Made by a program: the position numbers and the translations under genes. A stretch of DNA of 64,000 bases from an uncultured Planctomycetia bacterium (GTDB lineage: Bacteria; Omnitrophota; Gorgyraeia; Tantalellales; Tantalellaceae), in assembly GCA_964572255.1 (NCBI GenBank), contig CAZNEE010000001.1:203587-267586 (forward strand), read 5' to 3'. The notes below the pieces were generated by a model that worked only from the letters and a program-made list of their open reading frames with translations, did not search any database and was not told the origin of the DNA. Numbering within the stretch: the stretch's first letter is position 1; the number at the start of each line of letters is the position of its first letter. Of this stretch, positions 2,224 through 16,733 are shown piece after piece.

Positions 2224-3696
2224 ATGAAAACAGATGTCTGTTTTATTCTAGAAGGAACATATCCATATGTATATGGAGGTGTGTCAAATTGGATCCACAA
2301 CCTTGTGACTTCACTGGGCGATCTTAAGTTCTCCATAATACATGTTTCTGCAACCGGTGATACCATAAGAACGCCCAAGTATGAGATCCCGGATAATATA
2401 GTGGAATTCAAGGAGATCTTTGTACATGATTATAAGATCGAAAAGGGTAGGACCAGGGGCAGCAAGAGAGAAGGCTGGAGAGCTATACGTGAGTTTTATG
2501 ACGCTTTGGGAAGTAACGATCTATCAAAATTCACAGATGTCTATAAGCAGGTTATTGATAAAAATACGCGCTCACTGAATGCGTATGACCTGATGAATTC
2601 TGATCAGGCATGGAAAATGATGACCAGGCTTTACCAGGATTATGCGCCGGATGTGTCGTTTGTGGATTTTTATTGGACAATTAAATTTATACATAGCCCT
2701 CTTCTGAACTTGGTCGATGTTGAGATCCCAGAGGCAAATGTATTTCACACGGTTTGTACCGGCTATGCGGGATTGTTGTCTGTTATCGCGAAAATGAAGA
2801 GGCAGAAGCCGCTTTTATTGACAGAGCACGGTATATATACCCATGAAAGGAAGATAGAGATCTCAAAGGCCAAGTGGATCCATTCGGAGGAAGACAAGAT
2901 AATGAGAGCCACGAGAACACTGGGGTTTTTCAAGGAAGCCTGGATCAAGAAGTTCGAAACTTTAAGCAAACTTACATATGATTATGCTGATAAAATCGTT
3001 ACCTTATTTGAAGGCAATAGAAAAATGCAGATAGAGGGGGGAGCTGATCCGTCGAAGATATCTATTATACCGAACGGCGTTGATGTCTTGGAAGAGCAGC
3101 TGACCTTACATAGGGAAAAGGAAACAACAAAGAATATAGGATTTATCGGCCGTGTTGTCTCGATCAAGGACGTAAAAATATTTATAAGGGCAATGAAAAT
3201 ACTCAAAGAGAGGATGAAAGATATAAAGGTCTTTATACTTGGTTCAGGAGACGAAGAACCGGAATATTTTAACGAATGTAAAACTCTTACCCAGATGCTT
3301 CAACTTGAGGATAATATCACTTTTACAGGAAATGTTAATGTTGAGGATTATTATCCCATGCTGGATGCTGTTGTTCTTACGAGTATAAGTGAAGGGCAGC
3401 CTCTTACTATTCTGGAAGCCATGAGTTACGGTATACCGATAGTAGCTTCCGATGTCGGTGCATGCAGGGAACTTATTTACGGGAAAGATGAAGATGATAG
3501 AAATCTTGGGGAGGCCGGCATCTTGACGAATATAGGCAGCCCCCATGAAACGGCCGGCGCTATAATGTCTATTTTGCAGAACAAGGACTTATATCAAAAA
3601 ATGTCAGAGACTGGTGTTACGAGAATAAAAAAATATTACAGAAAAGAAAACACGATAAATTCGTACAGAGAGCTCTATGAATCATTGTTACGATAG
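2224..3696 (+). CDS. pelF: GT4-family glycosyltransferase with N-terminal DUF3492-like domain (PelF-like)
   Basis: N-terminus MKTDVCFILEGTYPYVYGGVSNW is typical of DUF3492. C-terminal GT1 motifs are EGQPLTILEAMSYGIPIVASDVG. It is followed by a PelG-like gene. Confidence 0.55.
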   Translation: MKTDVCFILEGTYPYVYGGVSNWIHNLVTSLGDLKFSIIHVSATGDTIRTPKYEIPDNIVEFKEIFVHDYKIEKGRTRGSKREGWRAIREFYDALGSNDLSKFTDVYKQVIDKNTRSLNAYDLMNSDQAWKMMTRLYQDYAPDVSFVDFYWTIKFIHSPLLNLVDVEIPEANVFHTVCTGYAGLLSVIAKMKRQKPLLLTEHGIYTHERKIEISKAKWIHSEEDKIMRATRTLGFFKEAWIKKFETLSKLTYDYADKIVTLFEGNRKMQIEGGADPSKISIIPNGVDVLEEQLTLHREKETTKNIGFIGRVVSIKDVKIFIRAMKILKERMKDIKVFILGSGDEEPEYFNECKTLTQMLQLEDNITFTGNVNVEDYYPMLDAVVLTSISEGQPLTILEAMSYGIPIVASDVGACRELIYGKDEDDRNLGEAGILTNIGSPHETAGAIMSILQNKDLYQKMSETGVTRIKKYYRKENTINSYRELYESLLR

Positions 3697-3744: not shown

Positions 3745-5151
3745 ATGGCAGGAATAGGTTTTGAACTAAAAAAAATGATGGATGAAGATACGTTCTCCAG
3801 TAACTTCAAGGCGTATCTGGTTGCCGGAATAATTTCCGCGGGACCCTGGGCGATCTCTATTTTTTGCCTGGGACTCTTATGGATGTTTTCCATTCCGCAT
3901 TTAGGTCTAGCATCACAGAAACTTTTCCGTACAACGGTGATCTATACCTATGCGTATTCTTTGATCACAACAGGCGCTATCCAGCTTGTTGTAACGCGTT
4001 TTCTTGCTGACAGGCTGTTCTTGAGGCAGAAGAATATCTTTCTTCCCACTTATGCCGGACTGATGCTATTCACGATAGTTTTTCAAGGGGCAACCGCGTT
4101 AATATTTTACTCGTTTTCCGATATAGATGTTAACTATAAGATCATAGGGGTGATCCTGTATATTGCGGTAAGCTGTATATGGCAGACGATGATCTTCCTT
4201 AGCGCGGCCAGGGATTTTTGGGGCATAGTAAGCGCGTTTTTCTGGGGGTCTTTTACGAGTTTTGTCATGGCCATATTTTTAGGCAAGCATTTCGGTTTTA
4301 ACGGCCATCTTCTGGGTTTTACAATAGGACAATCGCTTATCGTCATACTTTTGATGTACAGGATATTTTGCGAATTTGATTCTCCCTTGATATGTAATTT
4401 TCAATTTTTAAGAGAGGTCCCCAGATATTTTTCACTTTTACTCCTGGGCATATTTTATTACCTTGCGATCTGGATCGACAAGATAATTTACTGGTATTCC
4501 GCCTCCGGAGAACATATCGGGCCGCTTTTTTACTCACATTATCCTTATGACAGCTGCATGTTTCTGGCCTTTCTTACCATAATTCCCGCTCTTGCGCATT
4601 TCATGATAGATATGGAAACATCCTTTTATGACAAATACAAGGGGTTTTACGGCGCGATAGTCAACAAGGGATCCTTATTGGAAATAAGGAAAAAGAAAGC
4701 CGAAATAACCAAAGTTATCCGTGAATCCGCGGCACGGCTGTTAGTTCTGCAGACCCTTATTACGGGAGTATTTGTATTTTTTGCTCCGTCATTTATAGAA
4801 GCGATCGGTTTAAGGGAAGAACATATACCGGTGCTTAGAGCGGCAGGCATAGGAGCATTTTTTCATGTGTTCTTGCTCGTAACACTGATCATTATTCTCT
4901 ATTTTGACCGTAAACGCGCGGCTGTCTTTGTCGGGCTTTCGTTTTTGGTAACAAATGCTTTATTCACTTTGGGGATTATAAAATATGCTCCGGAATACAT
5001 GGGGTGGGGTTATGCTTCGGCAGCATTTTTTTCCTTCCTATTGGCGTTTATTTTATCATTATGGAATACTACTAATATCGAACGTTTGACGTTTGTCGAA
5101 CAGCCGATAGAGACTCCAAAGCTCCCCAGAGAAGCTTCAGAAAGTGAATGA
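3745..5151 (+). CDS. pelG: PelG-like polysaccharide exporter (PST/MATE-like 12-TM membrane protein)
   Basis: 468 aa polytopic membrane protein. N-terminus MAGIGFELKKMM resembles PelG N-termini (from memory, not searched). It lies directly after the PelF-like gene. Confidence 0.55.
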   Translation: MAGIGFELKKMMDEDTFSSNFKAYLVAGIISAGPWAISIFCLGLLWMFSIPHLGLASQKLFRTTVIYTYAYSLITTGAIQLVVTRFLADRLFLRQKNIFLPTYAGLMLFTIVFQGATALIFYSFSDIDVNYKIIGVILYIAVSCIWQTMIFLSAARDFWGIVSAFFWGSFTSFVMAIFLGKHFGFNGHLLGFTIGQSLIVILLMYRIFCEFDSPLICNFQFLREVPRYFSLLLLGIFYYLAIWIDKIIYWYSASGEHIGPLFYSHYPYDSCMFLAFLTIIPALAHFMIDMETSFYDKYKGFYGAIVNKGSLLEIRKKKAEITKVIRESAARLLVLQTLITGVFVFFAPSFIEAIGLREEHIPVLRAAGIGAFFHVFLLVTLIIILYFDRKRAAVFVGLSFLVTNALFTLGIIKYAPEYMGWGYASAAFFSFLLAFILSLWNTTNIERLTFVEQPIETPKLPREASESE

Positions 5152-5262: not shown

Positions 5263-6126
5263 ATGAATAAAGGAAAAATCCTTATAGCGGACGATGAGTT
5301 AAATCTTGTTGATATCTTGGAAAAGATGTTAATGAGAGAAGGTTATGAAGTCTTTAAATCTTCGAACGGCGAGGAAGTGCTTGAAATAGTAGATGATCTC
5401 ATGCCGGATCTTATCCTTCTGGATATTAACATGCCTGTCAAGAACGGTTTCGAGGTAAAAACAAAACTTAATGAAAAAACATCCACAGCAAGCATCCCGG
5501 TAATATTCCTCACCGGCAGGGGCGATCTGTCCGATAGAGTGGAAGGCCTTAATTTAGGGGTTGATGATTATATAACTAAACCTTTCCAATTGGAAGAACT
5601 GCGCGCAAGAGTTCTTTCTGTTCTGAAGCGCAGGAAGTTTTATGAAGAGATATCCATGACCGACGGGCTTACCGGATTACGCAACGTGAATTTTTTCAAT
5701 GAACAGATCGGCATATTTTTCAGTTTAGCCAAAAGATATAACCGCCTGTTCTCGCTTGCCGTGATCGATGTAAATGATTTCAAGAAGATCAACGATACGC
5801 ACGGGCATTCAGGGGGAGACTTCGCTTTAAGGAAATTATCGGAAGTCATGAAAGAGACGTTCAGAAAATCTGATATCATTACCAGATACGGCGGCGATGA
5901 ATTTATTGTGATCCTTCCTGAGGTAGATCAAAATCAAGCAGAAAGAGCGCTGAAAAGGGTAAAGGATAAGGTGAACGGCAAAGAGTTCCTGATGGAAGAC
6001 ACCGAAAAAAGAATATCCTTTTCAATAAGCGCAGGCACGGCCTCCTTTAATGAAAAATTCGAGAACGAAACACAGCTTTTCGACGAAGCCGATGCCAACA
6101 TGTATAAGGATAAAGAGAATAAATAA
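5263..6126 (+). CDS. Response-regulator receiver + GGDEF diguanylate cyclase (PleD/WspR-like)
   Basis: N-terminal REC domain (ILIADDE ... LILLDINMP ... ITKPF). C-terminal domain carries an intact RYGGDEF motif. Confidence 0.8.
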   Translation: MNKGKILIADDELNLVDILEKMLMREGYEVFKSSNGEEVLEIVDDLMPDLILLDINMPVKNGFEVKTKLNEKTSTASIPVIFLTGRGDLSDRVEGLNLGVDDYITKPFQLEELRARVLSVLKRRKFYEEISMTDGLTGLRNVNFFNEQIGIFFSLAKRYNRLFSLAVIDVNDFKKINDTHGHSGGDFALRKLSEVMKETFRKSDIITRYGGDEFIVILPEVDQNQAERALKRVKDKVNGKEFLMEDTEKRISFSISAGTASFNEKFENETQLFDEADANMYKDKENK

Positions 6127-6194
6127 TCCTGCCCAATATTGTCTTTTCACACATATCATTCTGCAAATATTATAAATTCCGTTCGAATTTGAAA

Positions 6195-6275
6195 TTAAGA
6201 GTACAGTATGCTTCCTACCAGGGCCCCTCCGCCCGGTGTGGATCCTCCCTGTACGGAACCATACTGCACTCTTAG
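6195..6275 (+). other. GC-rich imperfect long hairpin (candidate structured RNA / terminator-like element)
   Basis: 14-bp outer stem AAGAGTACAGTATG (6197-6210) pairs with CATACTGCACTCTT (6260-6273) with one A.C mismatch. The enclosed core is GC-rich (CCAGGGCCCCTCCGCCCGGTGTGGATCCTCCCTG) in an otherwise AT-rich spacer. There is no U-tail. Confidence 0.3.
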
Positions 6276-6342
6276 TTATTGATCCATAACTTTAATTGTA
6301 TCTATAATCCTCTTATGTTAGAATACACAAAAAGTCGAGGTC

Positions 6343-7335
6343 ATGATGATGTACGCCGGGACATTAATACTGTCCAGAAAAACAATAGAACATATAATTG
6401 ATATAAGTGAAGCGGTCAAGGCCGTGGAGAGCGCTTTCAGGGAATATGGACTGGGCAGGGTGCAGATGCCGGCAAAGATATATCTCCACCTTGATAAATA
6501 TGAGGGCGATTTCAGGGCGATGCCGGCATATATAGAAAAATTGGACAAGTGTGTCCTTAAATGGGTAAATGTCCATCCAAAGAATAAGAAATTCGGATTG
6601 CCCGCAGTAATGGCTGTTATTATTTTAAGCGATCCAAAGACCGCACTGCCTTTATGCATCATGGACGGGACTTACGCGACAAATCTGCGCACCGGGGCGG
6701 CTGGGGGCGTGGCCGCTAAATATCTGGCAAGGAAAAATTCAAAAATAGTCGGATTAGTGGGATGCGGAGCCCAGGCGAAGACCCAGCTCCAGGCCTTAAG
6801 AGGACTCTTCAAAATAAAAGAAGTAAAAGTATGGGGCCATAAGGCGTCTTATGTTGAAGAGTTCTTAAAAGACATGAAAAAGACAAATCTGAAACTGACT
6901 GTCGCCAGGGATGTAAAAGAATGTGTTAAGAATTGCGATATAATCGTTACTACAACACCTTCCAGAAAACCGATCGTGAAAGCAAAATGGCTTAAAAAGG
7001 GCGTTCATATAAATGCGATCGGAGCCGATGCTAAAGGCAAACAGGAGCTTGAACCCGCTGTTTTAAAGAAGGCTAAAGTCGTTGTGGATGCATGGGAACA
7101 AGCCTCTCATAGCGGGGAGATAAACGTACCGGTGAGAAAAAAACTCATAACAAGGAAAGATATTCATGCTGATATCGGCCAGATCATTGCGGGAAAGAAA
7201 AAAGGGAGGACAGGCGAGGACGAGATAACGGTTTTTGATTCGACCGGCCTGGCCATACAGGATGTGGCTGTGGCCGATCTTATTTACAGGACAGCTGCTA
7301 AAAAGAAAATAGGCAAGAAAATCAAAATAATCTAA
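6343..7335 (+). CDS. Ornithine cyclodeaminase / mu-crystallin family enzyme (possibly archaeal-type alanine dehydrogenase)
   Basis: OCD/mu-crystallin-like sequence with Rossmann segment [15 protein letters not shown]. It has an unusual Lys-rich C-terminal tail [11 protein letters not shown]. Confidence 0.7.
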
Positions 7336-7383
7336 AAGATAAAAATGGGGACAACAATTATCTCTATTTTTTAAGATAAAGAC

Positions 7384-8787
7384 ATGAAAAGGTTCCGTAA
7401 GATCAATAGCGGTATAACTGAAGGTGGGTTGAAGTCTTCACTTTGGAGATTGGCTATGCCTATGATCGTGGGAGCCATCCTGCACGATTTATTCACATTA
7501 GCGGATCTCTTTTTTGTGGGCCGTTTAGGGTACTTAGCGGTGGCGGCTTTATCTATTTCCGGTGTTATTATCGCAATGATAATAATGGTGGCGATAGGTA
7601 TATCCGTGGGAACAACAGCTTTAATAGCTCATTTTATGGGAAAGAAAGATTATGAATCGGCGGATAATGTTCTTTTTCAGACTGTTATCGTTAGCGTTAT
7701 TTGCTCTTTGGGGATGGTCCTTATAGGTCTCTTTGGTACAACCGGGCTGCTTCGCATGTTCGGCGCCAGCCCTGAGATCATCCCTGCCGCATCTGAATAT
7801 TTGAAAATAAGTTTTATCTGGTCTATTTTTATATTTCTTTTTATCGGTTTTGACCAGGCCTTGAGAGGTTCCGGAGACGCCATTGTCCCCCTGAAAGTTC
7901 TTATTCTGGCCAATGTGCTTAATATTGCTCTCGATCCATTGCTTATTTTCGGCTTAGGATTTTTCCCGAGAATGGGAGTTGCCGGATCTGCAGCAGCCAC
8001 TGTTATTAGCCGACTGATCGGAGTAATTGTTCTTTTCAGACATTTTTTCTATGGACATTCAAGCTTGCATTTTCATAAACGTATTTTAAGGGTCAATTTT
8101 CCGATTATAGGCAGAATGGTTAAGATCGGGTTTTTTGCTTCTTTGGAAGTACTGTTACGCCAATTGTCACTTCTTATGCTTCTTCGTCTTGTTACATCTT
8201 TCGGAGCGGCATGTTTGGCTGCCTTTGGTATAGCTATCCGGCTCAGAATGGCTGTTATGATGCTCGGATTTGGGATGGGATCTGCCTCATCGGTGTTAAT
8301 CGGACAGAATATGGGCGCAAGTCACCCCGATAGGGCTATGCAATCCGGGAAAGAGGCGTTAAAATATTATGAGTTGATCGTTATACCGATAGCGGTGGCA
8401 TTTTTTATTTTTTCACCAAATTTGATAAAGGTTTTCAGCAGTTATCCCGATGTTGTCAGGATAGGAAGCAGTTTCCTGAGGTTTATTGCTGTTACGCTTC
8501 CGTTTTTAGCTTTAGCTCTTATCCTGGGCAGAGGTATATCCGGGGCGGGTGATACGATCGCTCCGGCAGCGATGACAGGTATTGTGCAGTTGGGGTTACG
8601 TATTCCGGTTGCTTATCTGTTGGCCCTTGTTTTTAGTCTAGGTACTAATGGCATATGGCTCGGGATCAATGCCTCGGATGTTTGTCAAGGGTTAGCGATG
8701 TTATGGTATTTCAGACAGGGGTATTGGCAGAAAAGATATCATAAACATCGCTCTATTTTGGAGCAGGAGACTTTAATTGTTGCTTAA
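7384..8787 (+). CDS. MATE-family efflux transporter
   Basis: 467 aa, 12 predicted TM helices. N-terminus LAMPMIVGAILHDLFTLADLFFVGRLG is typical of MATE/NorM. Confidence 0.8.
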   Translation: MKRFRKINSGITEGGLKSSLWRLAMPMIVGAILHDLFTLADLFFVGRLGYLAVAALSISGVIIAMIIMVAIGISVGTTALIAHFMGKKDYESADNVLFQTVIVSVICSLGMVLIGLFGTTGLLRMFGASPEIIPAASEYLKISFIWSIFIFLFIGFDQALRGSGDAIVPLKVLILANVLNIALDPLLIFGLGFFPRMGVAGSAAATVISRLIGVIVLFRHFFYGHSSLHFHKRILRVNFPIIGRMVKIGFFASLEVLLRQLSLLMLLRLVTSFGAACLAAFGIAIRLRMAVMMLGFGMGSASSVLIGQNMGASHPDRAMQSGKEALKYYELIVIPIAVAFFIFSPNLIKVFSSYPDVVRIGSSFLRFIAVTLPFLALALILGRGISGAGDTIAPAAMTGIVQLGLRIPVAYLLALVFSLGTNGIWLGINASDVCQGLAMLWYFRQGYWQKRYHKHRSILEQETLIVA

Positions 8788-8905: not shown

Positions 8906-10252
8906 GTGGAAAATAGAACAGATATTTTGATAATTGGGGCAGGGCCAGCAGGCATGGTTAGCGCCGTGACAGCACGGAAATATTATCCTGATAAAAAGAT
9001 TACAGTCTTGAAAAGCATAGAGAACGGTGTGATACCGTGTGGCATACCCTATATGTTTTCAAGTTTACAGGACCCCGATGACAATAAATTGGGCACGGCG
9101 CCTTTGGAAAAGCTCGGCATTGAGATCATATTTGACGAAGCGGTCGCAATAGACAGGACCCTTAAGATGGTCGAAGGGCGGTCAGGGGATAAATATTCTT
9201 ACGAAAAGATAGTTCTGGCGCTGGGGTCTAATCCGATTGTGCCCGGGATACCGGGTATAGAGAAGAAAGGGATTTTCTCCGCTTATAAGGATATGGAATA
9301 CCTTAAGCCCTCTATAGAGGAAATAAAGAATGGGAAAGATATTCTAATACTCGGCGGCGGTTTTATAGGCGTGGAGTTCGCCGATGAAATCTCTAAAATC
9401 CCGGGGATTAAAGTCCACTTGGTTGAATTGCTACCGCATCTTTTAGCGCATTCTTTTGACAAGGAATTTTCCGATTTAGTTGAAGAAAGATTAAGATCAA
9501 AAGGCGTTGATATTCTGCTGAATAAGCGCGTTATGGAATTTCTGGGAAAAGAAAGAGTTGAGGCGGTCCGTTTTGAAAACGGTGACAAGCTTAAGGCTGA
9601 CAGCGTTGTCTTGGGGATAGGCACTGTGCCGAGCACGGACCTAGCCAGGGATGCTGGATTGGATCTCGGTAAGGGGAAAGGCATATGGGTGGATGAGTAC
9701 ATGCGGACGGTCGATTCCGACATTTTCGCGGTGGGCGACTGCGCCGGTAAAAGGGATTTTTATACCCGTAAGGACGCGCCTGTCATGCTTGCCTCAACCG
9801 CGACCGCCGAGGCCAGAATAGCGGGGGCGAATCTCTATCAGCTTAAGGTGATAAGGGAGAATAAAGGCACGATTGCCATATATTCAACTTATGTAGACGG
9901 TCTGGCCCTGGGGTCGGCCGGTCTTACCGAAAACAGCGCGAAAAGAGAAGGTTTTGAGATAATAACGGGAAGCACCGAGGGCGTCGACAAGCATCCCAAA
10001 AATCTGCCCGGTGTAAATAAGGTAAAGGTTAAATTGATCTTTTCCAAGCAGTCGGGGATACTTATGGGCGGCCAGGCGGCCGGCGGTATTTCGGCCGGAG
10101 AGACCATAAACGTTATAGGTCTTGCTATCCAGCAGAGGATATCAGTTACCGAACTTGAGACGCTGCAGATGGCCACGCATCCTTATTTAACAAGCGCGCC
10201 CACCATGTATCCGATAGTCTTGGCGGCGCAGGACGCGTCCGGAAAGATGTAA
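8906..10252 (+). CDS. FAD-dependent pyridine-nucleotide-disulfide oxidoreductase (NADH oxidase / CoA-disulfide reductase family)
   Basis: GAGPAG FAD motif. Single redox Cys in the IPCGIPYMF context typical of Nox/Npx/CoADR. Second Rossmann GGGFIGVEFA. Confidence 0.8.
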   Translation: MENRTDILIIGAGPAGMVSAVTARKYYPDKKITVLKSIENGVIPCGIPYMFSSLQDPDDNKLGTAPLEKLGIEIIFDEAVAIDRTLKMVEGRSGDKYSYEKIVLALGSNPIVPGIPGIEKKGIFSAYKDMEYLKPSIEEIKNGKDILILGGGFIGVEFADEISKIPGIKVHLVELLPHLLAHSFDKEFSDLVEERLRSKGVDILLNKRVMEFLGKERVEAVRFENGDKLKADSVVLGIGTVPSTDLARDAGLDLGKGKGIWVDEYMRTVDSDIFAVGDCAGKRDFYTRKDAPVMLASTATAEARIAGANLYQLKVIRENKGTIAIYSTYVDGLALGSAGLTENSAKREGFEIITGSTEGVDKHPKNLPGVNKVKVKLIFSKQSGILMGGQAAGGISAGETINVIGLAIQQRISVTELETLQMATHPYLTSAPTMYPIVLAAQDASGKM

Positions 10253-10267
10253 CTAGGAGGTAATAAC

Positions 10268-10360
10268 TTGCAGAGAAAAGTCTTCATCAGGACTTTCGGA
10301 TGTCAGATGGAAGCGTTATTGCATGTCGGTTTTACATTTCTTGGAGGGAATGTACAGTGA
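10268..10360 (+). other. miaB 5'-end-like mini-ORF A (LQRKVFIRTFGCQMEALLHVGFTFLGGNVQ*), orphan miaB start fragment or leader peptide
   Basis: TTG start lies 8 nt after a perfect AGGAGG (10255-10260) and 15 nt after the stop of the upstream gene. The peptide matches MiaB N-terminus MSKKVYLRTFGCQMN through CQM, then diverges. Confidence 0.6.
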
Positions 10361-10409
10361 TAGTTAAATGTTTAAGGGATAAAGAGTTATATAAAATAAT
10401 AATTGGGAT

Positions 10410-10421
10410 CCGTACGTAAGT
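10410..10421 (+). repeat. Conserved 12-mer CCGTACGTAAGT upstream of cassette gene (copy 1 of 3)
   Basis: The identical 12-mer recurs at 14600-14611, and the 11-mer CCGTACGTAGT recurs at 13011-13021. Each copy lies 7-45 nt before a cassette gene start codon. Confidence 0.6.
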
Positions 10422-10466
10422 GGAATTTATCAGATTTCATTCGAGCCTTTAACTGCACGTACTATT

Positions 10467-10856
10467 TTGGGAAAAGATATGAAAAGAGTTTTCGTAACTG
10501 CGATAAATTGCATTGATGGGCGGGTTCAGAAGCCTTTAACGGAATTTGCAATAAGCAAATTCGGGGTTGATTATGTCGATATGATAACCGAGCCCGGTCC
10601 GGATAAGATCTTGAGTGAGAAAAAAGACCTGAATATTATTGAATCAGTAAAAAGACGCACGTTAATTTCTGTTGAAAAACATAAATCAAAGGTCGTTATT
10701 ATTGCGGGGCATCATGATTGCGCCGCAAATCCGGTTGAAGAAAACGAGCATTATAGACAAATCAAGGAAGCCGTAAAAAATGTAAAAGAATGGAATTTAG
10801 GAGCTGATATTTACGGCATATGGGTTGATGAGAACTGGAAAGTTGTTTTACTATAA
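10467..10856 (+). CDS. Small beta-carbonic-anhydrase-like protein (Cab-type CxDxR and GHxDC motifs)
   Basis: 129 aa. Motifs CIDGRV and IAGHHDCAA match the beta-CA zinc-ligand/Asp-Arg dyad pattern. It is shorter than canonical beta-CAs, so function is uncertain. Confidence 0.55.
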   Translation: MGKDMKRVFVTAINCIDGRVQKPLTEFAISKFGVDYVDMITEPGPDKILSEKKDLNIIESVKRRTLISVEKHKSKVVIIAGHHDCAANPVEENEHYRQIKEAVKNVKEWNLGADIYGIWVDENWKVVLL

Positions 10857-10879
10857 AAATTTCTTAGAAAGGAAATAAG

Positions 10880-10915
10880 TTGCATAAAAAAGTTTACATA
10901 CGCACGTTCGGCTGA
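10880..10915 (+). other. miaB 5'-end-like mini-ORF B (LHKKVYIRTFG*)
   Basis: TTG start after AAAGGAAA, 23 nt after the stop of the previous gene. TGA stop falls at the position of the MiaB Cys codon. It is followed by the conserved TGACCGYTGGT block shared with copy C. Confidence 0.55.
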
Positions 10916-10979
10916 CCGTTGGTTACAGTGGCGCGAGATGATTATAGAATCGGTTAAAACTATAAGATGAGTGTAAGAT

Positions 10980-12827
10980 ATGTCGGAAAAAGAACTTAAA
11001 AGAGAACTGGGGTTTTGGGATATATTTTGTCTGGCCTCCGGGGCGATGATCAGTTCGGGTATATTTATACTGCCGGGACTGGCATATGGTCAGGCAGGGC
11101 CGCTGGTGTTCATATCATATTTTCTTGCCGGGGTACTGGCTTTAATGGGAACATTGAGCATTATCGAACTTTCTACAGCCATGCCCAAGGCTGGAGGCGA
11201 TTATTTCTTTATTACCAGGAGCCTGGGGCCGCTTGTAGGAACCGTATCCTCTTTTCTCAGCTGGACCGCTCTTTGCCTGAAATCAGCGTTTGCTGTGTTC
11301 GGTATAGCCGAGATTTTGTATATCACTTTCGGTTTTCCGGTACTCGTATCATCATTTTTTATCTGTTGTTTTTTTATGGCACTTAATATTCTGGGGGTAA
11401 AAGAGGCGGCAAAGTTAGAAATTATACTTGTTGCCGGATTGTTTGCCATAATGCTTTTTCTGGTAGTGGGCGGATTGGGAAGTCTTTCCGAATCCAATTT
11501 CACGCCTTTGCTCCCGAATGGTATAAACAAGGTGCTTGTTACCGCGGGATTTGTTTTTATATCCTTTGGAGGGCTTCTTAACATTGCCAGTATATCAGGA
11601 GAGGTCAAAGATCCTTCCAAAAATATTCCCAAAGGTATGATATTTTCGGTTCTTGCGGTTACAGCCATGTATTCAGCCGTACTTATAGTGGTGGTAGGTC
11701 TTTTGCCCGGGGATAAACTAGTAGGGTCTCTTACTCCGGTGGCGGACGCGGGAAGAATACTTTTTGGAAAAGCAGGTTATGCCGTAGTCTCAATAGGAGC
11801 GCTCCTGGCGTTTGTTACCACGGCTAATGCCGGGATAATGTCTGCATCCAGGTATCCTCTTGCTCTTAGTGACGACCGGCTTTTGCCGCCGGCTATAAGC
11901 ATCCTTACAAAAAAGAAAAGATCTCCCGTTGTAGCTATATCACTAACCGGGCTTTTCATCTTTATATGTTTGACTCTTGACCTCGCTACGCTTGTCAAGC
12001 TCGGATCAGTAGTTATCCTGACCCTGTATATATTGACCAATGCAGCCGTTATAATACTCAGGGAAGGAAGGGTTCAGAATTACAGGCCGTCTTTCAAAAT
12101 GCCTTTTTACCCCTGGATCAATATTGCCGGAATACTTCTTTTTGTTTTTCTTATCATGGATATGGGTTTTGTAGCTGTTGAGATGAGTATTGCGCTCTTG
12201 ATAACGGCAGTCTTGACGTATTTTCTGTATGGGAGGAAAAGGCACAATATAGAATATGCTTTGCTTCATTTAATAGAAAGAGTTATCAGTAAAAAAATAA
12301 CAGATAACACCCTTGAGGAAGAATTAAAAAGCGTTATTATTCATAGAGATGAAATGATAATAGATAGATTTCATGAGCTTGTTGAAAGTGCTACTGTTTT
12401 AGATATTAAGAAAAAAACAAAAATTGACATATTTCTTAATATGTTGGCGGAAAAGGTTTCAAATGAAATTGGTCTTGCGGATAAAGAAGTTATTGAGCTT
12501 TTCAAACAAAGAGAAGAGGAGGGATCTACTGCTATTACACCATTCGTAGCTATACCACACATAATAATCCCCGGCAAAAATAGATTCAAGTTGGTTGTAG
12601 TAAGATGTATCGAAGGGGTAGAATTTACCAGTGAAAATAATAGTGTAAAAGCTGTTTTTGTTTTATTTGGCACTAAGGACGAAAGGGCATTCCATCTGAA
12701 AGTTTTATCTTCCATAGCGCATATTGTGCAAAACCCAAAATTTGAAAAGACATGGATTAATGCCAAGGATGAAAATCAAATAAAGGATATTATTTTATTA
12801 AGCGAACGTAAAAGATTTAAAATGTAG
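10980..12827 (+). CDS. APC-family amino-acid permease fused to a C-terminal PTS EIIA(Ntr/Fru, type 2) domain
   Basis: About 12 TM helices in the N-terminal 430 aa. The C-terminal 150 aa carry the EIIA-2 signature REEEGSTAITPFVAIPH and VKAVFVLFGTKDERAFHLKVLSSIAHIV. Confidence 0.8.
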   Translation: MSEKELKRELGFWDIFCLASGAMISSGIFILPGLAYGQAGPLVFISYFLAGVLALMGTLSIIELSTAMPKAGGDYFFITRSLGPLVGTVSSFLSWTALCLKSAFAVFGIAEILYITFGFPVLVSSFFICCFFMALNILGVKEAAKLEIILVAGLFAIMLFLVVGGLGSLSESNFTPLLPNGINKVLVTAGFVFISFGGLLNIASISGEVKDPSKNIPKGMIFSVLAVTAMYSAVLIVVVGLLPGDKLVGSLTPVADAGRILFGKAGYAVVSIGALLAFVTTANAGIMSASRYPLALSDDRLLPPAISILTKKKRSPVVAISLTGLFIFICLTLDLATLVKLGSVVILTLYILTNAAVIILREGRVQNYRPSFKMPFYPWINIAGILLFVFLIMDMGFVAVEMSIALLITAVLTYFLYGRKRHNIEYALLHLIERVISKKITDNTLEEELKSVIIHRDEMIIDRFHELVESATVLDIKKKTKIDIFLNMLAEKVSNEIGLADKEVIELFKQREEEGSTAITPFVAIPHIIIPGKNRFKLVVVRCIEGVEFTSENNSVKAVFVLFGTKDERAFHLKVLSSIAHIVQNPKFEKTWINAKDENQIKDIILLSERKRFKM

Positions 12828-12868
12828 TGACGCAAAAATTCATACAACTATATAAGAGGTAATATTTT

Positions 12869-12904
12869 ATGTTAAAGAAAGTTTTCATCAGGACTTTTGG
12901 CTGA
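12869..12904 (+). other. miaB 5'-end-like mini-ORF C (MLKKVFIRTFG*)
   Basis: ATG with AAGAGGT RBS 8 nt upstream, 41 nt after the APC permease stop. TGA falls at the Cys position. It is followed by TGACCGCTGGT. Confidence 0.55.
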
Positions 12905-13033
12905 CCGCTGGTGTAAGGTATGCAGACTGATTTTGCAGACTTTAAGGGACATATATTCTTGCACTTAAGTGTTTGTGAAATATAGACATAATAAGTTAAT
13001 TAACTTAATGCCGTACGTAGTAAAAAATAGAAA

Positions 13034-14206
13034 ATGAAAAATTCTAGCAAATTTTTAATCAGCATCGCCGTGTTTTTAGGATTTTATTATCTGCCAATAG
13101 AATTATTGCCATTTCGAAATCCTATATTTGAAGCATTAGCATTAGCGAAATGGTATGCGAGAGAGCATGTGCTATTATGTTTAGTGCCGGCTTTCTTTAT
13201 AGCAGGGGCGATATCAGTTTTTATAAGTCAAGCAGCTATTATTAAGTATTTTGGCGCAAAAGCCAAGAAAATATTAGCTTATACCGTAGCTTCTGTATCA
13301 GGTAGTATTTTGGCTGTTTGTTCCTGCACAGTATTGCCACTATTTTCTGGAATTTACAAAAGAGGGGCTGGTTTAGGGCCTGCTATAGCATTCCTTTATT
13401 CAGGACCGGCTATTAACGTATTGGCTATTATTTTTACTGCTAGAGTTTTAGGATGGCAGCTTGGTTTTGCAAGAGCGGCAGGGGCTGTTATTTTTAGTAT
13501 TGTTATAGGATTTTTGATGCATCTGATATTCTTGAAAGAAGAACGGGAAAGGCATGCTCAAGGAAATTTCGCAGTGCCAGAGGAAGAGCCAAGCAGACCT
13601 TTATGGAAGAATGCTATATATTTTTCTTCTACGATAGGTATTCTTATTTTTGCCAATTGGGCAAAACCTGGCGCATCAGATTCAGGATTATGGGTAAAAA
13701 TATATCAATTCAAATGGTTTATTACAGCTATTTTTGGAATAGTATTAGCATTGGTATTGATAAGCTGGTTTAAAAAAGATGAACTAAAGAAATGGATAAC
13801 ATCAAGCTGGGAGTTTGCGCTTCAAATATTGCCCTTATTGCTTTTAGGTGTATTGGTAGCTGGATTGCTTCTTGGCAGAGTAGGTCATGAGGGGATAATT
13901 CCTTCAAGATTTGTTGAAAAATTAGTAGGCGGTAATTCATTATTCGCTAATTTCTTTGCTTCAATATTTGGAGCATTTATGTATTTTGCCACGCTTACAG
14001 AAGTACCGATCTTGAAAGGATTGATAGGCGCTGGAATGGGAAAAGGCCCTGCTTTAGCGCTTCTTTTAGCAGGCCCGGCGTTGAGTTTGCCTAATATGCT
14101 TGTTATACGAAGCGTAATAGGCATAAAAAAGACAGTTGTTTACGTAGCGCTTGTAGTTATAATGGCCGCTATAAGCGGGATCATATTCGGCATTTTAGTA
14201 AAATAA
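13034..14206 (+). CDS. COG0701/DUF318-type permease (two-repeat membrane permease with CSC motif)
   Basis: 390 aa polytopic protein. Motifs VASVSGSILAVCSCTVLPLF and LYSGPAINVLAI are typical of the YraQ/ArsP-like permease family. Confidence 0.7.
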   Translation: MKNSSKFLISIAVFLGFYYLPIELLPFRNPIFEALALAKWYAREHVLLCLVPAFFIAGAISVFISQAAIIKYFGAKAKKILAYTVASVSGSILAVCSCTVLPLFSGIYKRGAGLGPAIAFLYSGPAINVLAIIFTARVLGWQLGFARAAGAVIFSIVIGFLMHLIFLKEERERHAQGNFAVPEEEPSRPLWKNAIYFSSTIGILIFANWAKPGASDSGLWVKIYQFKWFITAIFGIVLALVLISWFKKDELKKWITSSWEFALQILPLLLLGVLVAGLLLGRVGHEGIIPSRFVEKLVGGNSLFANFFASIFGAFMYFATLTEVPILKGLIGAGMGKGPALALLLAGPALSLPNMLVIRSVIGIKKTVVYVALVVIMAAISGIIFGILVK

Positions 14207-14216
14207 GGGGAAGGTT

Positions 14217-14453
14217 ATGAAAATACAAGTTTATGGAAAAGGTTGCCCGAAATGCCACGATTTAACTCACAATGTCCAAGAAGCACTTAAAGAGATCGGT
14301 AAAGAAGATAAAGTTGAGCATGTGGCTGATATTAACAAGATAACCGAAAAAGGAATTATGCTTACGCCGGCGCTTGTTATCGATGATGAGATAGTAAGTG
14401 AAGGAAGGATTCTTTCGGTGGATGATATTAAAAAAGCTATAATGGATAAGTAA
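14217..14453 (+). CDS. Thioredoxin-fold redox-active disulfide protein 2 (CxxC)
   Basis: 78 aa with a CPKC motif near the N-terminus (MKIQVYGKGCPKCHDL). This is the small thioredoxin-like protein frequently paired with COG0701 permeases. Confidence 0.7.
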   Translation: MKIQVYGKGCPKCHDLTHNVQEALKEIGKEDKVEHVADINKITEKGIMLTPALVIDDEIVSEGRILSVDDIKKAIMDK

Positions 14454-14457
14454 AGTC

Positions 14458-14547
14458 ATGACAAAGAGAATATACATAAAAACTTTTGGTTGTCAGATGG
14501 AAGCGTTATTACATGTCAGTTTTACATTTCTTGGAGGAAGTTTATAG
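14458..14547 (+). other. miaB 5'-end-like mini-ORF D (MTKRIYIKTFGCQMEALLHVSFTFLGGSL*)
   Basis: ATG lies 4 nt after the thioredoxin-like stop. After CAGATGG the DNA is about 90% identical to copy A (10304-10350). The 5' part is divergent but protein-conserved. Confidence 0.6.
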
Positions 14548-14617
14548 TAGCAGCTAATTGCTTTTGGCTTAAAGAGTTAAGTTAACCTGAGACAGGGAAC
14601 CGTACGTAAGTATTGTT

Positions 14618-15394
14618 ATGAAATACACAAAACGACAGATTAATGATCTGAAAAAGGTAATGGGTGTTGAAAAAGAGATGATTCCGCTGCTTTCTCTTTT
14701 TAAGCCGAAAAACAGAATACTCAATCCGTGGGTAAAAAAGTTTCCCGGTATTTTTAAGAAGCTGGGGCTTAAAAAAGGAATGAGGGTGATAGATATCCCC
14801 TGCGGCCAGGGAGGAGTTTCGGTGCCTCTGGCAAAAAAGTACAAAGTGAACGTAACAGGATATGATATTTTACCGGCGTATGTCCGTTACGCGCGGGGAT
14901 ATGCAGAGGAAAAAAGAGTTTCCGATTTGTGCAGATTCGAGGTTGGGGATATCAGAGACGCGGTTAAAAGGAAAGATATATGCGATGTTCTTTTGTGGGT
15001 GGCGCCTCCTCACGTATGGGGCGGGGCAAAGCCCACCATAGGTAAGTTGAGAAATGCGGTTAAAGATGGAGGCATAATAGTTATTGCCGACGCATATCTA
15101 TATCCCGGTGTCAGACGAAAAGGAATGTATAAGAACTACGAGAATCTTAAAAATACCACTCAAGGATATTCCTCATTCGGCGATAAAATTGTAAAAGTGT
15201 ATGATTATAAAAGTTCTTTGTGGGATTTTGATTATTCAAGAACCAGAAGAGAAATCGTTAAAGGGATAAAAAGAGCAAAAACCGAAAAGGATCGAAAAAT
15301 CGTCAAAAAATATATTGCGTCAATGGATGATATTCAAAATAAAGAGACAAAAGATCTGGGCCTGGCGGTTTGGATAATAAAAATGGTTAAATGA
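14618..15394 (+). CDS. Class I SAM-dependent methyltransferase
   Basis: Motif I VIDIPCGQGGVSVPLAKKY. ATG is preceded by the 12-mer CCGTACGTAAGT at 14600-14611 instead of an SD sequence. Confidence 0.6.
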   Translation: MKYTKRQINDLKKVMGVEKEMIPLLSLFKPKNRILNPWVKKFPGIFKKLGLKKGMRVIDIPCGQGGVSVPLAKKYKVNVTGYDILPAYVRYARGYAEEKRVSDLCRFEVGDIRDAVKRKDICDVLLWVAPPHVWGGAKPTIGKLRNAVKDGGIIVIADAYLYPGVRRKGMYKNYENLKNTTQGYSSFGDKIVKVYDYKSSLWDFDYSRTRREIVKGIKRAKTEKDRKIVKKYIASMDDIQNKETKDLGLAVWIIKMVK

Positions 15395-15404
15395 AAGAGA
15401 TTGT

Positions 15405-16733
15405 ATGAGTAAGAAAGTTTATCTCAGAACTTTTGGGTGTCAGATGAACGAACGTGATTCTGAGCTTATTTCAGGCATGCTGAAAGAAAAGGGGTACAAA
15501 ATATCCGATAACGCGGAAGAAGCGGATATCATCCTTTTTAATACATGCAGCGTCCGCCAACATGCCGAAGACAGGGTGATCGGTAATATCCAAAAACTCT
15601 CTTCCCGGAAGAAAAAAGACCCGAATTTAAGGATAGGCGTCTTAGGCTGCATGGCTAAGCGTCATGGGGAAATGCTTTTCAAGGAATATCCGCAGGTTGA
15701 TATTGTCGTGGGGCCAAGCAATATTTATGACATTCCGGATCTCTTGGACAGGGTGTATGATTCTGAAGAGATTCTAGCTGTAGACAGGGAAAAGCGCCCT
15801 AAAAAGAAAGCATTAGCCGGATATCGTTCGGGAATATTTTCGGCATATGTTAACATCATGTACGGGTGTGATAATTTTTGTTCATATTGTATCGTGCCTT
15901 ACGTGAGAGGGCGCGAAACATCACGTCCTAAAAAAGACATCATCGATGAAGTCAAAGCTTTGGCCGATAATGGTTTTAAAGAAGTAACGCTTCTCGGGCA
16001 GAATGTGAATTCTTATGGCAAAGGCCTTTCGAGCAAAATATCTTTTCCGGAACTTCTGGAAGCCGTTAATCGTGTGAAAGGCATAGAACGCATTCGTTTT
16101 ACAACAAGCCATCCCAAAGATGCCGGAAAAAGCCTTTTTCGGGCGGTATCTGACCTGGACAAGGTATGCGAACACATCCATCTTCCGCTTCAATCAGGGT
16201 CCGACAAGATACTGGATCTCATGAACAGAAAATATACATATGAGGACTATAGAAAAAAGATAGAACTCTTGAGAAGCATGAATTCCGATGTAGGACTGAG
16301 TACTGATATTATAGTCGGGTTTCCTTCCGAGAAAGAAAATGATTATAAAGCTACATTTAAAGCGATGGACCAGATCGGTTTTAATTCCGCTTTTATCTTT
16401 AAATATTCGCCTCGTCCTCCCGCGCTCTCTTCATGTTTAGTGGATGATGTGAGTGAAAAAGATAAAAGAAGCCGAAATAACGAACTGCTCGAACTTCAAA
16501 AAAAGATATCACACCAAAAGAACAAAGGGATGGTCGGTACACAGCAGGAAATTTTGGTCGAGGGAAGGAGCCGCATGTCAAAAAAGGAACTTATCGGCAG
16601 GACCCGTAATTTTACGCCTTGCGTTTTTCCCGGTGGCGATAACCTTATTGGCCAGCTTGTTAAAGTGGACATAAAAGGAACAAGTCAAACCACGTTAAAA
16701 GGAGTATTAATAAGTGGAAAAGAAAATGATTGA
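15405..16733 (+). CDS. miaB: tRNA-i6A37 methylthiotransferase MiaB (radical SAM MTTase)
   Basis: N-terminal MTTase domain VYLRTFGCQMNERDSE. Radical SAM CxxxCxxC is CDNFCSYC. C-terminal TRAM domain. Start is 10 nt after the methyltransferase stop. Confidence 0.9.
   Translation: MSKKVYLRTFGCQMNERDSELISGMLKEKGYKISDNAEEADIILFNTCSVRQHAEDRVIGNIQKLSSRKKKDPNLRIGVLGCMAKRHGEMLFKEYPQVDIVVGPSNIYDIPDLLDRVYDSEEILAVDREKRPKKKALAGYRSGIFSAYVNIMYGCDNFCSYCIVPYVRGRETSRPKKDIIDEVKALADNGFKEVTLLGQNVNSYGKGLSSKISFPELLEAVNRVKGIERIRFTTSHPKDAGKSLFRAVSDLDKVCEHIHLPLQSGSDKILDLMNRKYTYEDYRKKIELLRSMNSDVGLSTDIIVGFPSEKENDYKATFKAMDQIGFNSAFIFKYSPRPPALSSCLVDDVSEKDKRSRNNELLELQKKISHQKNKGMVGTQQEILVEGRSRMSKKELIGRTRNFTPCVFPGGDNLIGQLVKVDIKGTSQTTLKGVLISGKEND

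Follow-up and report, generated by a model that had tools for sequence, protein, structure and literature searches.

A probable tandem array of mobile gene cassettes at the 5′ end of miaB in an uncultured Omnitrophota bacterium

The stretch of DNA analysed here (‘the window’; 64,000 nucleotides of contig CAZNEE010000001.1, assembly GCA_964572255.1, assigned by GTDB to the Omnitrophota) carries an intact miaB gene, preceded by four displaced copies of its own 5′ end with one or two genes set between each copy and the next. We believe that this region, 10268–15446, is probably a tandem array of four mobile gene cassettes, seated at the attachment site of a large serine recombinase (LSR) within the 5′ end of miaB; the best reading being that of an array of recombinase-less cassettes, like the staphylococcal cassette chromosome (SCC) in some respects and like an integron in others.

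Displaced miaB 5′ ends and the genes between them

The copies of the miaB 5′ end lie on the + strand and start at 10268, 10880, 12869, 14458 and 15405 (copies A to D and the intact gene, respectively), the last alone being continued into a complete gene. Each contains the ‘core’ ACKTTYGGNTG, for which the window holds exactly five matches, all on the + strand (at 10292, 10904, 12893, 14482 and 15429). An earlier note on this DNA had pointed to the same five, and they stand well clear of chance: 0.46 are expected, and five or more were reached in 0 of 100 shuffles. Independently, a repeat finder returned a five-copy family of 47 nt with spacings of 612, 1989, 1589 and 947 bp, along with a 105-nt repeat that pairs copies A and D. 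After the start codon all five share the peptide (M/L)-x-(K/R)-(K/R)-(V/I)-(Y/F)-(I/L)-(R/K)-T-F-G, whilst DNA identity amongst them is just 58–79% over these 11 codons; the note's observation that the upstream sides are variable yet conserved as protein is thereby borne out. The core itself consists of the invariant miaB codons Thr-Phe-Gly-Cys, its variable letters being third codon positions.

Reading the array from left to right, its left neighbour is a gene for a pyridine-nucleotide-disulphide oxidoreductase (8906–10252), and four gene units, all on the + strand, fill the space between this and miaB. Stub A (10268–10300), a displaced miaB 5′ end with a good ribosome-binding site (RBS), a TTG start and the peptide LQRKVFIRTFG, stays open through CQM to 10309; it forms the left, ‘attL-like’ arm of the outermost joint, and miaB probably started here originally in this lineage. 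Behind it lie a long ‘P′’ element (copy A, 10301–10427; nhmmer E = 3.9e-28) and the cargo of cassette 1, a putative carbonic anhydrase (Pro_CA_2; 10479–10856, E = 1.1e-48). Cassette 1 ends on its right in a miaB mimic, or ‘P arm’, namely stub B (10880–10912; TTG start, LHKKVYIRTFG, then a TGA stop). Stub B is followed by a short P′ element (copy B, 10913–10979, opening TGACCGTTGGTTACAGTGGCGCGAGATGAT...; nhmmer E = 3.1e-9 with the short profile) containing a promoter-like GTTACA-17-TAGAAT, and then by the cargo of cassette 2, an amino-acid permease fused to PTS EIIA-2 (10980–12827). Stub C (12869–12901; ATG, MLKKVFIRTFG, then TGA), the right-end mimic of cassette 2, leads into a long but diverged P′ element (copy C, 12902–13027; nhmmer E = 5.5e-20), which starts TGACCGCTGG as copy B does, and from there into the two genes of cassette 3 (13034–14453): an ArsP-type permease (13034–14206) and a thioredoxin-like protein (14217–14453). 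Stub D (14458–14490; ATG, MTKRIYIKTFG, reading on through CQM to 14499) is in turn the right-end mimic of cassette 3, with a long P′ element behind it (copy D, 14491–14613; nhmmer E = 5.6e-29) and the cargo of cassette 4, a SAM-dependent methyltransferase (14618–15394). Intact miaB follows at 15405–16733 on the same strand (442 amino acids; UPF0004, radical SAM and TRAM domains), its first ~11–14 codons (15405–15446) being the mimic brought in by cassette 4.

Cassettes 1 to 4 measure about 0.6, 2.0, 1.6 and 0.9 kb. Their cargo genes are mutually unrelated, and the units have only the joints in common; GC content shows a modest dip in cassette 3 alone and is not diagnostic. When species-representative genomes were scanned with the whole of miaB, no extra miaB stubs were found in the best relatives listed, which are only 48% identical. 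About 35 of 100 miaB homologs are called from Met14, which had raised the idea of a ‘Met14 start’; we set it aside because the call in L083 is a gene-calling artefact, the 5′ end of the gene there being intact.

The element behind the core and the recombinases beside it

Copies A and D had been reported to continue, after the core, with a block about 90% identical in DNA in spite of divergence upstream; the block (TGTCAGATGGAAGCGTTATTRCATGTCRGTTTTACATTTCTTGGAGG; 10301–10347 against 14491–14537) agrees at 45 of 47 positions. Taken over 15 nt at a time, the identity of A to D is 0.40–0.55 from -60 to -25, rises to 0.87–1.00 from the core to +40, settles at 0.53–0.80 out to +85, returns to 0.93 over CCGTACGTAAG at +105, and falls to 0.2–0.33 past +120. 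The sharp transition proposed at the core is therefore present, but the 47-nt block is only the first part of a conserved element of ~125 nt that ends in CCGTACGTA. Conservation along this element is uneven (45/47 in the first block, ~66% after it, 93% over CCGTACGTAAG), a pattern that fits functional constraint rather than neutral decay. The terminal CCGTACGTA occurs in the window only at 10410, 13011 and 14600 (0.14 expected), sitting 5–25 nt ahead of the cargo start codon at each of the three sites, with CCGTACGTAAGT at 10410–10421 in copy A and 14600–14611 in copy D; as it is present at 13011, copy C has the full-length element, just as A and D do.

This bears on the division of the downstream sides into two families (A with D, B with C) made in the earlier note. 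Copies B and C do have TGACCGYTGGT in common, over 12–16 nt, but further on their identity is 0.43 and then 0.25, and the division itself has had to be abandoned: C groups with A and D by the profile match given above, and B with the short form of other loci (L118, L101, L087, L179), all being variants of one element. A long-form profile (~125 nt, near gapless) matches A, C and D together with copies in L087, L116, L159, L167, L172 and L179, and a short-form profile (~65 nt) matches B together with copies in L118, L101, L087, L172 and L179. Joints of other loci bridge the two (in the miaB frame: GCQMEALLHVGFTF, GWPMDKLLHSYFTL, GWPLGSLLQTDFTV, G*PLV*GMQTDFADF, G*PLVTVARDDY, GWPLVQVARDDS). On the strength of these alignments we treat the post-core sequences as one homologous element with a long form (~125 nt: A, C, D) and a short form (~65 nt: B). 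In 2.2 Mb of fetched sequence plus the window, the P′ profiles have no match that lacks a miaB 5′ fragment directly ahead; since it matches only there, the element is not a dispersed repeat, and the dispersal of the kind seen for miniature inverted-repeat transposable elements (MITEs), which had been offered as an alternative, is not found. The exact A/D block is absent from the viral collection.

The most conserved internal features of the long element are ATTTTACA and, 16 nt later, TA(C/T)AGT; a sigma-70-like pair that reads into the cargo (TTTACA-16-TACAGT at 10331–10358 in copy A, TTTACA-16-TATAGT at 14521–14548 in copy D, both on the + strand). From its sequence, TTTACA-16-TAYAGT is predicted to be a promoter that would drive the cargo, and P′ as a whole may combine a recombinase half-site (its first ~20–25 nt), this outward promoter and a short leader ending CCGWACGTAAGT. 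A structured RNA or single-stranded DNA fold, also considered for the long element, was rejected: the consensus of seven joints folds at -2.74 kcal/mol with no supported long-range helix, and Rfam gives no match at the gathering threshold, and at the E-value threshold just a spurious long non-coding RNA (E = 0.73). The end motif CCGWACGT (10410, 13011, 14600; also L116:7961 and L159:221) is, exactly or nearly, the reverse complement of the core ACGTTCGG (for instance 10904–10911), which lies ~110 nt upstream. Pairing of the core ACGTTCGG with the terminal motif CCGAACGT as an inverted repeat was dropped, the consensus fold giving it no support.

The left ends of the cassettes are homologous to the attP site of an LSR. 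Our point of entry to this enzyme was a set of close miaB homologs, 62–81% identical and named as Omnitrophota by their sources, amongst them that of locus L085; here a 568-aa protein with Resolvase, Recombinase and Zn_ribbon_recom domains, accompanied by a D5-type primase-helicase, is encoded directly upstream of miaB, its last codons overlapping an N-terminally extended miaB start in a different reading frame. Homologs of the recombinase abut or overlap the miaB start in several lineages (L085/86, L092, L093, L119, L148, L014 and L034; seven beyond L085), and a recombinase stands beside the att site in L085/86, L092, L093, L119, L148, L167, L181, L183 and L184. Most instructive is the viral contig L167, in which the LSR gene (6007–7752) ends in a miaB mimic (...PRVLLRTFGCKM) and the long element (7686–7812, TGCAAGATGGCGGCAATGTTACATACCGATTTTACA...AACCAAACGTAAGTGAAAAGG; nhmmer E = 1.7e-22) comes after the mimic, followed by the next gene. 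Mimic and long element together make up an intact attP, and the A/D block is thus its P′ arm, to which copy A of the window is homologous. The mimic is found joined to the miaB body in L085 and at 15405 in the window, and the long element is found after displaced stubs in the window, L087, L116, L159 and L179. P′ arms beside other LSR genes have the first ~20 nt in common (TGYCAGATGGNNGCGTTAT; TGCCAGATGGTTGCGTTAT) or start TGGCCGATGG, and both left-end starts (TGYCAGATGG and TGRCCGNTGG) occur directly after genuine serine-recombinase genes. P0131 was tried as a link between the exact A/D block and one LSR, and rejected because its P′ arm is a different variant. A scan of viral contigs with the LSR profile matched only three contigs; full-size LSR elements are longer than the 10-kb flank, and a search of the flanks for their left junction (attL) reached none.

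The catalytic domain of the LSR matches that of TP901-1 (E = 1e-29), and SprA and A118 are matched along its length, with identity to any deposited phage integrase reaching at most 32%; these comparisons mark the enzyme as a true large serine integrase. Its family numbers 441 proteins at E <= 1e-40. Amongst the best 120 homologs 103 are full-length, and 93 of the 103 end in the tail P(S/T)(A/D)(A/V)(R/K) followed by a stop, the +1-frame reading of T(F/Y)GCQM; in these 93 it takes the first base of miaB codon 14 (Asn14) to complete the TGA stop, and 10 of the 103 read through into P′. Judged by these tails, the LSR family of Omnitrophota is dedicated to the T-(F/Y)-G-C-Q-M-N coding stretch of miaB.

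The LSR open reading frame (ORF) overlaps its own att site (L085:9975–10004; L167:7686–7752). In the integrated state its TGA stop is made from CAGA-TGA-AC, and in the free attP the ORF is 18 codons longer, extending into the P′ arm; the overlap could act as an integration-state switch. Right after the attP of one read-through LSR lies a defence island (L183:2976–12632), made up of a Gabija-like pair (OLD/TOPRIM ATPase and UvrD helicase), a TIR protein of the ThsB type and a restriction-modification system of type I. Within the spacer behind that attP (~2640–2690) is a sequence resembling a tRNA T-arm and acceptor 3′ end; ARAGORN called no tRNA there.

The sister strain and other Omnitrophota loci

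Four contigs of a sister strain, taken from other samples (L172–L175), carry a miaB 99% identical to that of the window and are collinear with it, at 99.7% up to 12903 and at 99.4% from 15400 on. They are without ~2.5 kb that corresponds exactly to cassettes 3 and 4, the break lying inside the mimic/core; in the sister strain the mimic of the amino-acid-permease cassette (the equivalent of stub C) is joined directly to miaB, the body of which is 99.9% identical after the core. Strains therefore differ by whole cassettes at a joint. Unrelated cargo and a post-core element confined to miaB 5′ fragments in the sequence searched, together with a 99.7% identical sister that lacks two cassettes at this point, uphold the earlier view of the joints as products of recombination with element-specific left ends and not of tandem duplication.

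Other Omnitrophota have the same cassettes in a different order. In L179, from a different species, a methyltransferase gene is followed by a type-1 joint, a methyltransferase, a C-like joint, a further methyltransferase, a short joint, the amino-acid permease and miaB; at least three clear joints, and at least three or four cassettes. Cassette 2 aligns with this locus as a unit from end to end (10895–12903 in the window, 8026–10035 in L179), with the same short left end. The order in L087 is type-1 joint, patatin, short joint, ArsP and thioredoxin-like pair, miaB; the pair of the window is 82% identical to L087 8542–9991, right-hand mimic included, as against ~71–74% for miaB and MatE. Counted in cassettes, all of them recombinase-less, the array of the window has four, that of L087 two and that of L179 at least three or four. 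Single cassettes of 0.5–3 kb stand at L095, L101, L116, L118 and L159, with diverse cargo: DUF2157 and GDYXXLXY proteins, a B12-radical SAM enzyme, a methyltransferase, and AbiGi-like, PDZ and transglutaminase-like proteins. These single-cassette loci come from a metagenome scan with a clade-specific miaB segment, which gave at least six loci of the clade among the matches listed.

Several Omnitrophota loci have small ORFs of the GIY-YIG family (PF01541) within the variable stretch ahead of miaB or next to it (L087 ~2719–2990; L089:2040–2399; L176:8585–8857; L179:6399–6644), that of L179 lying inside the array. In L099 a displaced miaB fragment (3453–3560, MTKTIFLQTYGCQMNARDSEEVLGMLTA..., about 30 residues) sits 0.8 kb upstream of the intact gene at 4234; its breakpoint is unlike all other joints, and a second mechanism or a different element may have been at work. 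The protein P0022, a miaB homolog encoded on a contig of 2.4 kb, has two in-frame N-termini (MKSKVFLRTFGCQM, then 25 unrelated residues, then SVYIRTFGCQMNERD); this resembles a joint that is almost empty, or what a deletion has left, with translation running across it.

Mechanism, rival explanations and known systems

Each cassette consists of a left end (the P′ arm, long at ~125 nt or short at ~65 nt), one or two cargo genes, and a right end (the P arm) made up of an RBS, a start codon and 11–13 codons that mimic the miaB N-terminus. In the mechanism that we propose, it would recombine as a circle (P-core-P′) with the 5′ end of miaB, within the first ~14 codons; the incoming mimic would become the new miaB start, so leaving miaB intact, and the start used until then, joined to the P′ arm of the newcomer, would be left further upstream as a short, dead stub. 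Repeated insertion would generate the order stub A, cassette 1, stub B, cassette 2, stub C, cassette 3, stub D, cassette 4, miaB, with the newest cassette probably nearest miaB. Because a genuine miaB right half exists only at the miaB-proximal joint, new cassettes should enter next to miaB; this is in keeping with the sister strain, in which precisely cassettes 3 and 4 are lacking. As neither the cassettes nor the 64-kb window encode a recombinase, we infer that an LSR encoded by a full-size element elsewhere in the cell would excise and integrate the cassettes in trans.

A more far-reaching proposal, which we make tentatively and rate at somewhat less than an even chance, is that an equivalent of the integron, built on a serine recombinase, exists in Omnitrophota. 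The miaB 5′ end would be its dedicated capture site; recombinase-less, promoter-bearing single-gene cassettes would enter, leave and change order there through the trans action of an LSR carried by a phage or satellite, and the C-terminus of this LSR would be switched by integration. With a spare miaB N-terminus in each cassette, the gene itself would never be lost. Neither serine recombinases targeting miaB nor arrays of this kind turned up in the searchable literature.

Several observations weigh against the array as we read it. A scan of ORFs of >= 110 aa revealed no recombinase of any class in the window, and none of the loci examined has an array with both an LSR element and LSR-less cassettes. 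Dyad symmetry at the joints scores about 6/24 at every candidate centre, which is the chance level, and so does not place the crossover. The 30-nt mimic of the sister strain (L172:10004–10033) differs from stub C (12872–12901) at 6 mostly synonymous positions against a background of 0.24%, a difference not expected from a plain cut-and-paste event at a single dinucleotide; nor is the sister's mimic chimeric between copies of the window, and a comparison with L179 suggests that it may be the older version. Other mismatch clusters in the window-sister alignment (5 within 14 nt in the permease gene, L172:8752–8765; 4 within 28 nt, L172:4050–4077) may point to short-patch recombination or to mixed-strain assembly. 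Nor are P′ and cargo strictly linked: homologous ArsP cassettes open with a long P′ in the window but with a short P′ in L087, and near-identical type-1 P′ arms stand ahead of unrelated cargo. Finally, the genes of cassettes 1 and 2 have homologs in L087 (490–858, Pro_CA_2; 855–2699, amino-acid permease/EIIA) that stand upstream of MatE as one tight, translationally coupled operon, with an ATGA overlap and without a joint, where the same pair in the window is separated by a joint of 123 bp; at least some cargo is thus shared with the chromosome or recruited from it.

As to the crossover itself, positions at the start codon and inside the mimic were both tried, and neither fits all of the three cassette comparisons. 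By comparison of sequences it would lie roughly within -10 to +2 of GGN|TG. Of the earlier proposal that crossovers fell in a short core, the recombinational nature of the joints therefore holds, whilst the core is accounted for by its Thr-Phe-Gly-Cys codons.

A part of this evidence could also be explained if full-size LSR elements had integrated serially at miaB and then shrunk by internal deletions, leaving the cassettes as immobile remnants that keep both att arms. Such scars would account for a window without an LSR, for the frameshifted LSR of L092 and for the ordinary operon formed by the ProCA and amino-acid-permease genes in L087; moreover, decay of full elements does happen, L176 and L177 having miaB starts with the LSR-style N-terminal extension and no LSR upstream, and it is for this reason that we continue to give the explanation some weight, whilst considering it unlikely. 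What tells against it is the uniformity of at least 15 independent cassettes, all with the same compact layout (P′, one to three genes, mimic), with short, non-extended mimics and with no LSR pseudogene remains; to which may be added the same cassette occupying different array positions in different genomes, the whole-cassette differences between sister strains exactly at a joint, and a first ~47 nt of P′ that is far better conserved than the remainder.

The two further explanations that we weighed are much less probable still. That no mobile element is involved, the region having arisen by tandem duplication or homologous recombination, or the joints being regulatory leaders (a leader peptide with a structured RNA) for each operon gene, can appeal to stubs with a start codon and often an RBS, to their translatable peptides of 11–30 aa and to the promoter-like hexamers within the element; yet units that have nothing but joints in common, cassettes present or absent as wholes between strains, the lack of a conserved RNA structure, and the identity of the element with the attP arm of a recombinase-bearing viral contig leave this very improbable. 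Least credible of all is a classical integron, with an IntI-like tyrosine recombinase, attC-like hairpins and the miaB 5′ end as attI. In its favour is an array of promiscuous single-gene cassettes, all facing the same way at one position and parted by a repeated site of ~60–170 nt; but the ORF scan of the window turned up no tyrosine recombinase, and the inter-cassette element, which has neither a conserved hairpin (consensus -2.7 kcal/mol) nor an Rfam match, adjoins serine recombinase genes instead.

Were the cassettes of our preferred reading mobilised in trans, gene capture in the manner of integrons would have a second route, independent in mechanism and based on serine rather than tyrosine recombination. 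This would apply in a large uncultivated phylum of small genomes, the gene-exchange routes of which are poorly known, and would account for strain differences in transporters, methyltransferases and defence-type genes beside a housekeeping gene. The design is a compact natural one: a landing site of ~50 bp within coding sequence that is conserved universally, together with a self-repairing mimic and a predicted outward promoter. As a family of large serine integrases the LSRs are new and numerous, and their attB/attP pair is defined; enzymes of this kind are wanted for genome engineering. The overlap of ORF and attP offers a testable way in which an element might sense whether it is integrated or free.

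How, then, does the array compare with known systems? Phage large serine integrases land in coding genes (TP901-1; A118 in comK; SPbeta SprA in spsM), the gene being split until excision. Our LSR has the same domain architecture and likewise directs site-specific integration into a coding gene via short att sites; here, however, the target is kept intact by the mimic, and, as the LSR ORF overlaps attP, integration changes the C-terminus of the enzyme and creates its stop codon. The array resembles integrons in its small, mostly single-gene accessory cassettes, set in one orientation at a fixed site, with the newest probably by the insertion point and the order varying; it differs in its class of recombinase, in having no folded attC, in cassettes that appear to have their own promoter where those of integrons rely on Pc, and in insertion inside the coding sequence of an essential-type gene, which every cassette repairs. 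The defining tests of integrons, MITEs and structured RNAs are all failed by the array.

A similar choice of target is made by the dusA-specific integrases, which place islands at the 5′ end of a tRNA-modification gene, the MiaB-like gene rimO being a target in Polaromonas (PMC4482086); there too a substitute 5′ end is supplied and the gene stays functional. Those enzymes are tyrosine integrases on large prophages or islands, and no miniature recombinase-less arrays are described in that paper. The tycheposons of Prochlorococcus target mainly tRNA genes, a minority using LSRs (bioRxiv 10.1101/2020.12.28.424599), and share with our array adaptive cargo and serial integration at one site, which pushes older elements inward and leaves partial target copies. 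They differ in carrying their own integrase and replication genes, and in partial repeats that are tRNA fragments rather than protein-coding N-termini.

A further parallel is with the composite SCC and SCCmec islands of staphylococci, in which the LSRs CcrAB or CcrC act at rlmH and recombinase-less SCC-like, ACME and COMER cassettes are mobilised in trans (PMC11470126). In common are an LSR, a single housekeeping landing gene, and tandem cassettes between att repeats, some of them recombinase-less and in varied combinations. The target here, however, is the 5′ coding end of miaB and not the 3′ end of rlmH, so that RBS, start codon and N-terminus all have to be replaced by every cassette from its own sequence; the cassettes are of 0.6–2 kb with one or two genes, as opposed to 17–68 kb; the recombinase is not a Ccr orthologue and belongs to a distant family; and the hosts are uncultivated Omnitrophota, in which we infer the trans-mobilisation documented for SCC. 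The array works like SCC, yet lies outside the SCC family; indeed, differing in site, enzyme family, cassette size and built-in mimic, it belongs to none of SCC, the integrons or the dusA islands.

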